Assembly: GCA_965203905.1 (NCBI GenBank)
Contig: CBDBDQ010000005.1
Span: forward strand, 1,984,001 to 2,048,000
Direction of reading: 5' to 3'
Length of the DNA: 64,000 bases
Source of the DNA: Spirochaetia bacterium
GTDB taxonomy: Bacteria; Spirochaetota; Spirochaetia; SZUA-6; Bin103
Part shown: positions 13,239-18,017 of the stretch, piece by piece
Layout of the letters: each line of letters starts with the position of its first letter
Position numbering within the stretch: position 1 is the stretch's first letter
Position numbers and translations under genes: made by a program
The notes under the pieces: model-generated
Told to the model about the DNA's origin: nothing
Databases searched by the model: none
What the model saw: the letters and a program-made list of their open reading frames with translations, nothing else

Positions 13239-14252
13239 TCAACTCGCCTGCGGGCAGGGATCTGCATCTACGGGGTAGGTGCGATAGCTTACGCTCGACC
13301 GGAAGTTGCTCAGGAGGTCGGCGGCAAGTTCCGTTGCCCGGTTACGGAGTCTCACGGCAGCAGTGCGCAGGGTGTGCGCCGCCGATGCTCTGCCGTCCAC
13401 CCTTCCGAAGGAGGAGGTGCCGACCGCGCCGTGGGTCAGGACAGCGTCCGTTTCCGCGGCGCCGGCCAGGGTGATGGCCCCGCCGTTGAGGGACAGGGCG
13501 TTGGCGGGGATGTCGTACCCGTCGCCGTCCCGGTCTTCCGGTCGCACGGTGTAGCAGAAGCCGATGGACCTCTCCGGGTCGGTTTCCCAGGGTGCGGCGG
13601 GAAGGAAGCTCGCCCGCCGCGTCTCGGTGCCGATGATCAGCACCAGTTGCGGTACACCGGTCACCCTCACGGCTCGGTCGAACGCCAATGTGACCACGAT
13701 GCGGTCGTCGCGACGGTAGGTTCGGCCACGCGAGGGGTGGTGGTGGATGATGTCGTAGATCCGGGGAGCGGTAACGCGGCTGCCGTCCACCTTACGCCCG
13801 GCGTCGGCAGGCACCGGGGCGCTGGCGATCTCCGTGAAGGTGGTTCCGGCGCGGTCCTTGACGGTCCCCTCGTTGAGCGACAGCGCGTTGGCGGGGACGC
13901 TGATCCCGTCGCCGTCACGGTCCTCCGCGCCGACCGTGTAGGCGAACCGCAGGTCGCGACCGTCGAAGGAGATGGAGTGGGCCTGCGCGAGCCGGATGTG
14001 ATCCCCGACGCTGAGCGCCAATTCCGCCCGGCCCTCGTACCACTCGATGGCTCGATCGAACCGCACGGTCACCTCGATCTTCTCGCTGAGTTCGTACGTG
14101 TCCCCTTGCGCCGGGCTGTCGGCGAAGGAGACAGCCTCGACCGTCGGCGCATCAGCAGTGGATTGGGCCTCCGCGCAGCCTGCCCCCAGTCCGGTCACGC
14201 CGATGAACACCGACAGCAATGCGTACCAGGGCCGGCCGCGACTTCGCTCCAT
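13239..14252 (-). CDS. Secreted lipoprotein with two tandem Ig-like/Ca-binding repeats
   Basis: Hydrophobic signal ending GLGAGC; repeated unit TY....I.VT..FDRA..G...L.L.(V/I)G...R.A...F.YTV..EDRDGDG..(V/I)PANALSLN.G. Confidence 0.75.
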   Translation of the reverse strand: MERSRGRPWYALLSVFIGVTGLGAGCAEAQSTADAPTVEAVSFADSPAQGDTYELSEKIEVTVRFDRAIEWYEGRAELALSVGDHIRLAQAHSISFDGRDLRFAYTVGAEDRDGDGISVPANALSLNEGTVKDRAGTTFTEIASAPVPADAGRKVDGSRVTAPRIYDIIHHHPSRGRTYRRDDRIVVTLAFDRAVRVTGVPQLVLIIGTETRRASFLPAAPWETDPERSIGFCYTVRPEDRDGDGYDIPANALSLNGGAITLAGAAETDAVLTHGAVGTSSFGRVDGRASAAHTLRTAAVRLRNRATELAADLLSNFRSSVSYRTYPVDADPCPQAS

Positions 14253-14392
14253 GGCGGACAGATTACCGCCCCCGGTTCACAAGTCAAACCTGCATGATCG
14301 GCGCGCCACTCCCCCCGACGACATGAAACGCGGACGACGTGTCGGCGCGGAGTCTCAAGCGTTTCGGAGGCGTGTCGTGGCATCCTCAAGGG

Positions 14393-14587
14393 GGCGGAAG
14401 CGAGCACCGTCGTCGTAGCTCTTTTCGGTGGCGGGAGACGACTCCCTTCCCCGTTGTCAAACTGGCGCTGCGCGCTGGGCATCGAGCCCCGAACCGTACC
14501 CGGCCTGTGGCCGTGGACGAGCAGCAAATCGAACCCCGCTTGGAAGGCGGGTGTTTCCTGCACCCGGCGCGCTCGCCCGCTTCCGCC
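14393..14587 (+). ncRNA. Candidate IS110 bridge/guide-like structured RNA
   Basis: Closed by 10-bp stem GGCGGAAGCG/CGCTTCCGCC; internal hairpins (CACCG/CGGTG, GGGAG/CTCCC, CGGCC/GGCCG, CCCGC/GCGGG); lies just upstream of the transposase RBS. Confidence 0.55.
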
Positions 14588-14605
14588 GTCAAGGAGGGTA
14601 AGCTG

Positions 14606-15892
14606 ATGAGTTACACCACTGTCGACAGCGACAGCGACACCTTGTGCACCGATGACATGCACGTGGTGTGTGCCCGCGCTGCCGGCCTCGACGTGCACAA
14701 GATGCACGTCACCGCCACGGTGCGGCTGTGCGAGGCCGGTAGCGGACCGGCGCGCACGGCCACCCGGAGTTCAGCGCGCTGCCGGAGGGCCTGCGCGCGA
14801 TGACCGAGTGGCTGCGCGGACACGGCGTCGCCGCAGCGTCCATGGAAGGCACCGGGGTCTACTGGAAGGCGCCGTTGGAGGCGCTCGAAGACGCGGGCAT
14901 CCAGGCCGATCTGCACCATGCCCAGCAGGTCAAGCAGATCCGCGGGAAGAAGACGGATGTCAACGACAGCCTGTGGCTGGCGCGCATCTGCCAGTTTGGT
15001 CTGGCGTTGCCGAGCTACGTTCCGCCGCGTCTGTTCCGGCAGCTGCGGCAGTTGACCCGTTACCGCCGTAAACTGGTCGACGAGCGCTCACGGGCGCGCA
15101 ACCGGGTCCACAAGACCCTCGACCACGACGGCTTGCGGCTCGGCGGCGTGTTGTGCGACATCTTCGGCGTCAACGGGCGGCGCATCCTCGACGGGTTGGT
15201 TGCTGGGCACTCGCCGCGTTACATCCTGGCCAATCTGACGCACCACGTGGCCGCCAAGCTGGCGCCGTTGACCCAGGCACTGGCGGCCACGCTCGAGCCG
15301 CTCGCACTGTTTCTGCTGCAGACCCAGATGGAGGCCGTCGACCGCGCCGACAGTGCCCTGGTGGCGCTGGACGAGCGCATCCGCACCGTACTGGCCGATT
15401 ACCAGCGCGCCCTGCGGCTGCTGCAAACGATTCCAGGTATCGATTACGGCAGTGCCTGCACCATCCTGGCCGAGATCGGGCCGGACCTGGGGGCGTTCCG
15501 CAAAGCGTGTTCTATCGGCCCCTGGGCCGGCGTGGCCCCGGGCAACAACAGCAGCGCCGGCAAACGTCGCTCCGGGCGCGCGCGGAAAAGGCAATCCGAC
15601 GCTGCGCGCCACGCTGGCCGAGTGCGCCCATGGGGCGGTGCGGACCAAGAGTTCGCAGTTCTACGGCCATCACCGGATGTTGGCCGGGCGCGTCGGCTAC
15701 AAAAGGGCCATCCTCGCCAGTGCCCACAAGCTGTTGCGAGTAATCCACGCCGTGCTGCGCGACGATCGACCGTACATCGATCCGGACATCGACTACGAAA
15801 AGCTGGTCGTCGAGCGCAACGCGCCGCGCTGGATGCGCATGCTCGCACGGCACGGCTTCCTCGCCGAAGCGCAAGCAGCAGCGCGCGGCTAA
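14606..15892 (+). pseudogene. IS110-family DEDD transposase/recombinase with two frameshifts
   Basis: GLDVHK, MEGTGVYWK, KKTDVNDS, TIPGI, PGNNSSAGK, GN..LR..L.ECA; frameshifts near 14766 (missing G) and 15588 (extra A); SD AAGGAGG upstream. Confidence 0.92.
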
Positions 15893-16259
15893 AACGCACG
15901 GTTCCGTATCACGCGGCGCCGTGACGGGCCATAGCACGGGGCTGCCCGCACCGCCAAGCCGATCTGGAACCGCACCTGCCCATGCCCAAGGGCCGCCAAC
16001 CCGCGGTCACGCTCCCCGTGCGCCCAAAGCACCGGCGCGTTTCACAGCAAGAGCTCGGAGGGTAGCTCGACATGGGCTTGCCGACCGTCGAGGTAGAGGA
16101 CACCCAACTGCTGGGAATACGCGGGTGATGCCAGTAGCAAGAGAAGGGTCAGTCTAGTGATCACGATTACTTCTCCGCAAGGAAATGAGCACCAATACAA
16201 AGTAGAAAGTGATCAATACAAGATGTAAAACAGGCCATATCCGGGTCAGCAGGAAGTCG

Positions 16260-17675
16260 CTATCCCACCTTCTCTGCAACTTCCCCACTGACGTCCCCAC
16301 GGACAACGGGATACGGACCCGGTGTTAATGACGATCCGTCCGACCAGTTCTCCGCCCTGCCTTCCAGGTGTCGCGCCATCCGCGATCTGAGTTCGGCCAA
16401 GGTTTCAGCGTGCGCGTCCGCTCCGGAAAGCTCGGCCGTTTCCTGCGGATCCGACTCCAGGTCGAACAGCTGCTCGGCTCCGGTAACGGGGTTCCAGATG
16501 TACTTCCACCGGGAACTGGTCAGTGACTGGTAGCAGTTCTGCGGATGGTAACAGGGCGCGTGTTCGTGATGGTAGTACTCACGCCACTCCGCGGACTCGC
16601 CCACGACCAGTGGCAGCGTGCTCCTTCCTTCGACCGCACGCGGCGTCTCCAGTCCAGCCAGGTCCAGAAACGTCGGCATGATGTCCTCCCAGCCAACGAC
16701 GGCATCGAGTTCGAGGTTGCGCTCCCCACCGTGACCATGTGGCAGCCGGAGGATCATCGGTACGCGGGCGCTCGCCTCGTACGCGTAGGTCTTTCGCCAG
16801 AGGTTGTGGTCCCCCAGCATTTCACCGTGGTCGGAGGTAAAGCAGACGGCGGTGTCACTCATCTGTCCCGACCCCCCCAGGTATTCCGTCAGCCGACCGA
16901 TCTGTACGTCGAGGTAGGCGAGGTAGGCGAAGTACCCGGCGCGTGCGCGCTGGTTGAGGTGATCCGAAATCTTGCCCCGCCAGGCGTTCACATCCAGCGG
17001 ATATCGAGCTTCCTCCGCATGTACTGCGGCCCAGTCGCCGACAACGGGAGGCGGCATCCCACGGTCGATGAACATGTCGAAGAAGTCGCGTGGTGGACAC
17101 CACGGTGGATGCGGACCGTTGAAGGAGAGGCAGAGGAAAAAAGGCCGCGTGGGATCGCGCTTGTCGAGTCGGTCGATGGCCTGGCTGACGAGCCAGGTTT
17201 CTTCCATCTGTGTTTCCGGAAGGTGGTTCGGACGGGACATCCACGAGTTCGGGTGAACGCCATGAGCGTACTTCGCACGAGGGTGTCGGGTCTGACCCTC
17301 GATCCACTCCTCGTAGTCCTGAGGCGTGATGAGCTGCTCGAAACCGAGATGGGCGCGGCGCGGGTGGAAATGGGTCTTCCCGACATTGATGGTCTGGTAG
17401 CCGCCGCGGGAGAGCTCTCCGGCCAGGGTCTGCTCGTACGGCCAGGGAAGGTTGTCCCGGTACCCGAGAAACCCGGTCCCGTTCGGTGTGAGACCGGTCA
17501 TCAGACAGCGACGGGCCGGCACGCACGACGGAGACGGTGTGTACCCGTTGACGAAGGTAACGCCCTCGGCCGAGATGCTGTCGAGGTGAGGTGTTTCGGC
17601 AACGGGATGACCCAGGCGGCCGAGGCAGTCGCCGCGCCAGTGGTCGGTCAGGATGAGGATAATGTTAGGAGGCAT
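16260..17675 (-). CDS. Sulfatase (Cys-type, arylsulfatase/choline-sulfatase-like)
   Basis: PNIILILTDHWR.D, CVPAR (CxPxR), GKTHF, TSDHGEMLGDH. Confidence 0.93.
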   Translation of the reverse strand: MPPNIILILTDHWRGDCLGRLGHPVAETPHLDSISAEGVTFVNGYTPSPSCVPARRCLMTGLTPNGTGFLGYRDNLPWPYEQTLAGELSRGGYQTINVGKTHFHPRRAHLGFEQLITPQDYEEWIEGQTRHPRAKYAHGVHPNSWMSRPNHLPETQMEETWLVSQAIDRLDKRDPTRPFFLCLSFNGPHPPWCPPRDFFDMFIDRGMPPPVVGDWAAVHAEEARYPLDVNAWRGKISDHLNQRARAGYFAYLAYLDVQIGRLTEYLGGSGQMSDTAVCFTSDHGEMLGDHNLWRKTYAYEASARVPMILRLPHGHGGERNLELDAVVGWEDIMPTFLDLAGLETPRAVEGRSTLPLVVGESAEWREYYHHEHAPCYHPQNCYQSLTSSRWKYIWNPVTGAEQLFDLESDPQETAELSGADAHAETLAELRSRMARHLEGRAENWSDGSSLTPGPYPVVRGDVSGEVAEKVG

Positions 17676-18017
17676 GGAGGGCCCAATAGTCAACAGGCAG
17701 CGAGCAATACATAATTAGGAACTACGTGAGGGCTTCAGGGTGAGAACGACGGGTGATCCCACCGGAACAGGCTCGGCAACAATGGCAACGCGTTTGTCGG
17801 ATGTGTAGATGCCGTCCTGGCGATGGGAATTGTACGGCAGATACGACAGGATTGCCCGTGCTTTCTGCGAGAGCCCACTGACCGAACCGCGCCCCGCCAG
17901 GGCCAGCGAACCACCCAGGGATACACCATCGAGATCGCCAACAGCCTCTGGTCGAATGCTGCGTCCAGAGCCAGTTTCGCCCCTGGTGATGAGTTTCATC
18001 GGCATCGGCAGCTGAAA

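Follow-up and report, generated by a model that had tools for sequence, protein, structure and literature searches.

Bridge or seek RNAs, the guide RNAs encoded by insertion sequences of the IS110 and IS1111 groups, underlie a new class of programmable recombinases, and the rules by which they act have been drawn from a handful of elements, namely IS621, IS622, ISCro4, ISEc11 and ISEc21. The published descriptions drawn on here are those of Siddiquee et al. (2024; PMC11187229) and of Durrant et al. (2024; PMC11208160). In IS1111 seekRNAs the match to the target's top strand lies 5' of the match to the bottom strand, the reverse of the order in IS110-type elements such as ISEc21 (PMC11187229), and in the IS621-like members of the IS110 group the bottom-strand (left) guide occupies the 5' side and the top-strand (right) guide the 3' side of the target loop (PMC11208160, PMC11187229). 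IS1111 elements are described as carrying sub-terminal inverted repeats of 11-13 base pairs (bp), terminal extensions of 7 bp and 3 bp, and a non-coding region downstream of the transposase gene (PMC11187229); the second report gives 7-17 bp for these repeats and places the donor-binding nucleotides of many IS1111 bridge RNAs in a multiloop (PMC11208160). A few exceptions with an upstream non-coding region are mentioned, for example ISMtsp17, a relative of IS1111, as are repeat-bearing elements in a deep branch of IS110 (PMC11187229). Here we describe an element of this kind in a stretch of 64,000 nucleotides (nt), hereafter the window, taken from the genome of a Spirochaetia bacterium (assembly GCA_965203905.1, contig CBDBDQ010000005.1, positions 1,984,001 to 2,048,000). 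The segment 14286-16050 of the window (plus strand, as are all features below unless stated otherwise) is, in our judgement, most probably one of three genomic copies of an IS110/IS1111-family insertion sequence whose left end encodes a bridge/seek RNA with both target and donor guides.

The element's ends were placed from the three genome copies, some 40 related element types and contigs of other metagenomes. A query spanning 14250-16120, run against the whole genome, returned three places: the window copy and two others (L002 and L003), each 95% identical, which cover positions 36-1805 and 34-1800 of the query (window 14285-16054 and 14283-16049). Both of the latter contain an intact open reading frame (ORF) of 428 amino acids (aa) that matches the Pfam families DEDD_Tnp_IS110 (1.5e-23) and Transposase_20 (9.3e-19), the domain content of the IS110 family in the broad sense of ISfinder. 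To IS621 and ISCro4 the protein is similar over residues 49-169 only (E about 1e-10), and the closest annotated relatives on plasmids (36-40% identity) bear just the label 'IS110 family transposase'. In the window the corresponding gene (14606-15892), which has both domains, is a pseudogene spread over three frames (14606-14803, then the frame of 14800-15924, then 15353-15892), with one frameshift in a G-run near 14765 and a second in an A-run near 15586-15589; it is preceded by a left non-coding end of 320 nt and followed by a right non-coding end of 158 nt. Contigs of run X1, probably the source sample of the window, have the window's letters at both frameshifts. The frame-restoring G behind 14765 is present in contigs of runs X2 and X4, and those of X4 have one base fewer at 15586 or 15589; because of these frame-restoring forms, the window copy is recognized as a pseudogene version among intact relatives. 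It is dead, yet its ends look intact, and it might still be mobilized in trans by its two intact counterparts.

The three genome copies become alike at CAAACCTGCATG (14285) and cease to be so after ...TTTCACAGCA (16049). Beyond 16049 the window copy and L002 share five more bases, AGAGC, and L003 reads TCAGAG. The right junction of L003 (L003:3260-3275, on contig C3 of the same genome) is GCAT-CAGAG and not GCAA-GAG, with either a different second core base or an insertion of two bases. A scan of species-representative genomes yielded 77 loci. Among the full-length matches to the left end, 20 of 22 begin at 14285, the first base of the query used, and the other two at its bases 2 and 9. When 12 multi-copy families were compared copy versus copy, the ends could be read in 11, starting with (x)AAAC... 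and ending with ...CA[CT][AG]GCAA(A) between unrelated flanks; the same end motifs were seen in the twelfth family, from Pseudomonadales, in a separate look at its junctions. In contigs of X2 and X4 the match to the element starts at 14285 and 14284, respectively, and beyond it other flanks follow. Copies arranged head to tail were encountered at five loci (L007, L055, L060, L067 and L080), joined as ..CACAG-CAAA-C..; this is the junction expected of an excised circle, and L007 holds extra partial copies as well. The base before the A-run varies by site and the RNA described below tracks that base, which therefore belongs to the target. The bases shared by the junctions are AA(A), and the element is therefore placed at 14286-16050, with the core AA at 14286-87 and again at 16049-50. 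In the mapped families AA(A) is common to both junctions, in agreement with the site-specific insertion, short shared core and lack of a long target duplication that mark the broad IS110 family. The target flanks that adjoin the window copy are GTC on the left (14283-14285), copied in the bottom-strand guide of the RNA, and GAGCT on the right (16051-16055), complementary to its top-strand guide. In one Pseudomonadales metagenome-assembled genome (MAG) all 11 copies (L030-L039 and L054) lie in a single repeated host sequence, ..G[GT]TGA / element / (A)T[GC]CGGGCTAG, where the element's apparent target is a genomic repeat, a frequent habit of IS1111-type elements.

The RNA itself spans about 195 nt (14393-14587) of the left non-coding end. 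An alignment of 18 representatives of the region 14390-14590 yielded, with RNAalifold, 35 consensus pairs, 19 of them with both partners changed. In an independent count 94.8% of cells pair versus 84.9% in shuffles, with none of 500 shuffles reaching the observed value, and a shift of the partners by 1-3 columns lowers pairing to 40-50% of cells. Only the plus strand accommodates an invariant G-U pair in helix Pa and further G-U pairs in hairpin P5. The non-coding end thus holds a structured RNA with compensatory changes, as bridge/seek elements do. Its closing stem, P1, comprises 10 bp (14393-14402 with 14578-14587). Helix Pa joins CGUCG (14411-14415) to UGGCG (14463-14467), the latter directly after the heptamer GUCAAAC; its five pairs all hold, in 100% of cells, three of them with double changes (in 7, 3 and 6 sequences), and in distant families CGUCG/UG[A/G]CG gives way to GGACG/UGUCC and similar compensatory combinations. 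Hairpin P2 (14426-14453), the distal stem of the target-binding loop, was delineated from local folds of distinct RNAs and the fold of the window RNA; in most families the local folds consist of Pa and P2 with loop sides of about 10 nt and about 9 nt. Helix P3, whose 5' strand (14470-14479) pairs with 14563-14572, encloses the donor multiloop; four central pairs were scored, all four with double changes, and the full 10 bp form in the window fold. The multiloop contains hairpin P4 (14495-14519; 10 pairs, 5 with changes on both sides) and the terminator-like hairpin P5 (14534-14551), followed by the U-rich UGUUUCCU. As a unit, P5 and UGUUUCCU (14535-14561) score as intrinsic-terminator-like and, if used, could yield a shorter form of the RNA; the tail after P5 is not U-rich in distant families. 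The window RNA differs from that of the two intact copies at 14403, 14408, 14465 and 14544-45, the changes including an A-C mismatch in P1, a U-G in place of a U-A pair in Pa and one additional base in the loop of P5, and these helix differences fit a copy no longer under selection.

To relate the RNA to its insertion sites, 84 RNA copies (45 distinct RNAs) were collected with nhmmer and their junctions located. Family relatedness dominated the raw mutual information of RNA columns with junction positions, which was unusable, and run lengths in cognate versus non-cognate pairs were compared instead. The 3' side of the loop between Pa and P2, GUUGUCAAAC, has the same sense as the left junction; here the bottom-strand target guide GUCAAAC (14456-14462) corresponds to the left flank GTC, the core AA and the element's first 2 nt. 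In 69 distinct RNA/left-junction pairs, identity extends past the A-run by 2.83 nt on average, versus 0.64 nt with the sites of other families. The A-run is equally long in RNA and left-junction DNA in 68 of these 69 pairs, and RNA and DNA change jointly both in the base that precedes the run (C, T, G or A) and in the opening bases of the element (AAAC, AAAAC, AAAAGC, AAAT). By these counts the bottom-strand guide covaries strongly with the target.

The opposite, 5' side of the loop, UAGCUCUUUU in the window, is complementary to the core and the right flank, and the top-strand target guide AGCUCUU, continued by UU (14417-14425), would pair with the core AA and GAGCT (16049-16055). At 63 sites, Watson-Crick pairing continues past CAA into the flank for a mean run of 2.02 in cognate versus 1.06 in non-cognate combinations, and at least 4 pairs beyond CAA are formed in 12 of the 63 cognate cases versus 1.5% of the non-cognate ones. 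A single register accommodates AGCUCUU/AAGAGCT in the window, GUCUU/AAGAC at L061 and L069, and UCCGCAU/ATGCGGG at eight of the 11 listed Pseudomonadales sites; for AAUUAC/GTAATT (L009 and L024) the match between guide and flank lies in a register shifted by 4. The heptamer AAGAGCT, present six times in the window versus 3.5 expected, sits exactly on the right junction. These counts point to a moderate covariation of the top-strand guide with the target.

A third guide follows its DNA in the same way. Within the multiloop the stretch GAGCAGCAAAU has the sense of the right end, and the donor (right-end) guide CAGCAAA (14522-14528) reproduces CAGC of that end, the core AA and the first base of the left end. 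The 2 nt before the invariant GCAA (CA, CG, TG or TA) agree between RNA and DNA in all 19 distinct combinations. By analogy with the published work on IS621, ISEc11 and ISEc21, we infer that the RNA is expressed, that the transposase binds it and that it guides recombination. P1 encloses two DNA-reading regions: the internal loop between helix Pa and hairpin P2 would read the target, and the multiloop with P3, P4 and P5, which holds CAGCAAA and so copies the right end and core, would mark the donor. In such a scheme the RNA would direct the circle junction ...CACAGC-AA-ACCTGC... into sites resembling ..GTC-AA-GAGCT..

Several results weigh against this RNA-guided reading. An empty site was not found: both flanks were searched in 40 relatives without an adjoining pair being met, the left flank matching a repeated protein-coding domain and the right flank giving short matches only. 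The homologs are related to each other, and the contrasts between cognate and non-cognate pairs therefore overstate independence. A second donor guide, complementary to the core and left end, is part of the IS621 model, and none was found among 38 element types (no exact antisense match of at least 6 nt recurred at one place in the RNA); a segment named D (UGUUUCC, 14552-58) is able to pair with AAAC in close families, without covariation. No Rfam family was detected over 14000-16400 in evalue mode, the sole match being a chance microRNA (E 0.6). Metatranscriptome contigs of run X22 cover 14861-16016 and bits of the flanks only, with none on 14330-14845; contigs cannot show RNA ends, and this result says nothing either way. 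The top-strand guide is weak in several families, with just 0-1 nt paired beyond CAA at 33 of the 63 sites, and the right flank of L003, in the same genome, misfits it. These last figures would also agree with a simpler scheme in which only GUCAAAC and the core select the target, the match of AGCUCUU to the right flank being coincidental or minor and the U-rich 5' side merely pairing with the A-rich core, as might the Paracoccaceae (L053, L041) and Thalassobaculaceae (L074-77) families, in which the segment holds little beyond the U-run and right-flank specificity is almost absent. We consider that scheme improbable in view of the four unrelated guide sequences that match their own right flanks, three in one register and AAUUAC/GTAATT shifted by 4, of the excess of cognate sites with at least 4 pairs, and of the rarity of AAGAGCT in the window. 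The scans for promoters, which revealed no sigma-70-like promoter in the left end or at a head-to-tail junction, and the resemblance of P5 and its U-rich tail to a terminator or attenuator might instead suggest a mere leader or regulatory element of the transposase mRNA, with flank matches that stem from a site preference of the protein. That is more improbable still: tracking of the flank base by base, with equal A-runs in 68 of 69 pairs and T, G or A variants before the run, is predicted by RNA-DNA pairing and not by protein recognition, and RNA-guided logic has been established experimentally for relatives, according to the passages cited (PMC11208160, PMC11187229).

The least tenable account, to which we give almost no credence, is the one from which this study set out. 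The original prediction took GTCGTCG-T-AGCTCTT (14409-14423) for a terminal donor loop whose two halves both pair with one strand of a junction, AAGAGCT/CGACGAC, through a shared CG. The two DNA heptamers do stand where it placed them in the window copy, CGACGAC at 14316-14322 and AAGAGCT at 16049-16055, and CGACGAC is found in the two other genome copies too. GAGCT nevertheless lies outside the element, since the three copies differ there, and the head-to-tail junctions read ..CACAG-CAAA-C.. The true left end is 14286, so CGACGAC is 30 nt inside the element, and the ends proposed at 14316 and 16057 with a shared CG are contradicted by those mapped here. CGACGAC is moreover a common 7-mer (30 in the window versus 25 expected, a number reached by 18 of 100 shuffles), and in homologs it becomes CGACGTC, CGACCGC or CGAGCTC, with GTCGTCG invariant in close homologs. 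Instead of serving as a guide, GTCGTCG is paired within the RNA and contains the 5' strand of helix Pa, with its compensatory changes in distant families. AGCTCTT, in turn, is a real DNA-reading guide, although what it pairs with is the core AA and the right flank, hence the target and not the end of the element; the supposed donor loop consists of a Pa strand followed by the top-strand target guide. The hairpin said to carry this loop, CACCG/CGGTG, lacks support in the 18 sequences, where 66.7% of cells pair, double changes are absent and 500 of 500 shuffles match this figure or better it; its fourth pair forms in 2 of the 10 sequences with letters there, both intact copies read CACAG, and the window minimum-energy fold does not contain it. 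Because CGACGAC is internal and the right half pairs with core and flank, the circle junction and the empty site foreseen, ...CCACTCCCCC-CG-GAGGGTAG..., are wrong. What the prediction rightly perceived is that an IS110-family element here carries a structured guide RNA in its left non-coding end, that a 10-bp stem closes this RNA, as the alignment confirms, and that a long left end is here combined with sub-terminal inverted repeats. It had also proposed that other copies and homologs be compared; these were found and the structure covaries among them, while the word of the left half does not, and the 40 relatives gave no empty site. With the ends lying elsewhere and no covariation of loop and end for the left half, two outcomes named in advance as decisive, a donor loop complementary to both ends is refuted.

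The left arm of the sub-terminal inverted repeat, TGAAACGCG (14324-14332), lies 38 nt inside the left terminus and the right arm, CGCGTTTCA (16036-16044), 6 nt from the right core. In the window TGAAACGCG/CGCGTTTCA, of 9 bp, is one of 31 inverted-repeat pairs in the 1.8 kilobases; the longest inverted repeat of 20 of the 24 element types lies at these same two positions, with 6-10 bp exact and a covarying sequence, variants of which include TGAAACGC, TGAAACAG, TGTAAGTT, TGTAACT, CATGAAACAC and TGAAAT. Across element types the left arm lies 36-41 nt inside the terminus and the right arm stands 4-6 nt from the core. The L048 family has a gapped inverted repeat about 34 columns long. In 10 of 11 families the right end, reverse-complemented and locally aligned with the left end, did not score above shuffles. 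Further motifs were noted in both ends. A degenerate palindrome at 14296-14311 (no strand assigned), 10 nt inside the left terminus, was picked out by eye from the alignment and is unscored; some homologs have a perfect version, changed in both arms, for example GATCGGC..GCCGATC (L008) and GAGGGGC..GCCCCTC (L006). A conserved element of the right non-coding end, 15925-15955 (GGCCATAG.CGGGGCTGCCCGCACCGCC), can form a small GGGG/CCCC hairpin.

One segment of the multiloop, E (GCCCCGAA, 14486-14493), has the same sense as an inner box of the left end, CCCCCCGAC (14311-14319), situated just outside the left repeat arm, in which the 2 nt after the C-run are those of the RNA segment. The C-run and the next dinucleotide are shared by segment and box in 20 of 22 distinct combinations. 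The shared dinucleotides fall into five classes (GA, GG, GT, GC and TG), each of which may be one clade, so that the independent events are probably about four, and over 10 nt the segment has 3.16 mismatches to its cognate box versus 3.68 to non-cognate boxes, barely better. A pairing of segment E with the GGGG box of the right non-coding end was also considered and rejected as too weak (2.68 cognate versus 3.16 non-cognate mismatches of 10), the complementarity being striking just in the L048 and L098 families. It is conceivable, though doubtful, that the element belongs to a hybrid IS110/IS1111 lineage with split donor recognition, in which CAGCAAA reads the right-end crossover and segment E reads the internal box CCCCGNN by the displaced left repeat, about 25-33 nt from the crossover. 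If true, segment E and its box would add to the RNA-DNA contacts a third class that the IS621 model lacks; their likeness could, alternatively, be a trace or relic of two nested left ends.

The clade to which the element belongs, with transposases at least about 50% identical, is hosted by Vicinamibacterales, Bryobacterales, Binatia and several proteobacterial MAGs. All 23 metagenome relatives examined at 37-46% identity are without the end motifs and the guide-like motif, and the features of the clade therefore stop at about 50% identity; with nhmmer the RNA was present in just 5 of 80 metagenome loci. In the window the neighbours of the element are a 337-aa ORF without a Pfam match (13239-14252) and a sulfatase gene (Pfam Sulfatase, 3.5e-47; 16260-17693), both on the minus strand. 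The start codon of the 337-aa ORF is 34 nt from the left end of the element, and the insertion may separate this ORF from signals upstream of it; many partial paralogs of its DNA occur in relatives. For annotation, the ends of the element are corrected and the guide bases identified, and about 45 natural RNA variants with mapped targets become usable for deriving design rules.

Set against the published descriptions, the element is a variant of the known bridge/seek system that combines IS1111-like features with an RNA upstream of the transposase gene, as in IS110. With the IS110 group (IS621, ISEc21) it shares a recombinase composed of a DEDD/RuvC-like and a Tnp domain, a long left non-coding end that encodes the RNA, and an internal target loop whose two guides overlap on a 2-nt core; as in that group, the guide runs on into the partner DNA, resembling handshake bases (PMC11208158). 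Unlike IS621, which has 2-3-bp repeats only, it carries longer repeats, and the guide order is reversed relative to that described for the IS110 group. In this order it is instead like the IS1111 elements of the passages cited (ISEc11, ISPa11, ISKpn4), since the top-strand guide AGCUCUU (14417-23) precedes the bottom-strand GUCAAAC (14456-62). Further likenesses to the IS1111 group as described there are the overlap of the two target matches at the insertion point, the covarying sub-terminal inverted repeats with a right arm few bases from the end, and the placement of the donor-reading nucleotides in a multiloop. It differs from the same descriptions in that the RNA (14393-14587) lies upstream of the transposase gene (start 14606) and not downstream, in that the left arm is 36-41 nt inside the terminus versus about 7, whereas the right side fits (4-6 nt versus 3 bp), and in the window repeat of 9 bp versus the 11-13 bp quoted. 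An upstream non-coding region together with IS1111-type features recalls ISMtsp17 and the other exceptions; the likeness is one of description, the passages concerned giving neither their RNAs nor their guide order (PMC11187229). The clade thus shows that the position of the RNA relative to the gene, upstream or downstream, and the order of the guides are not tied together.

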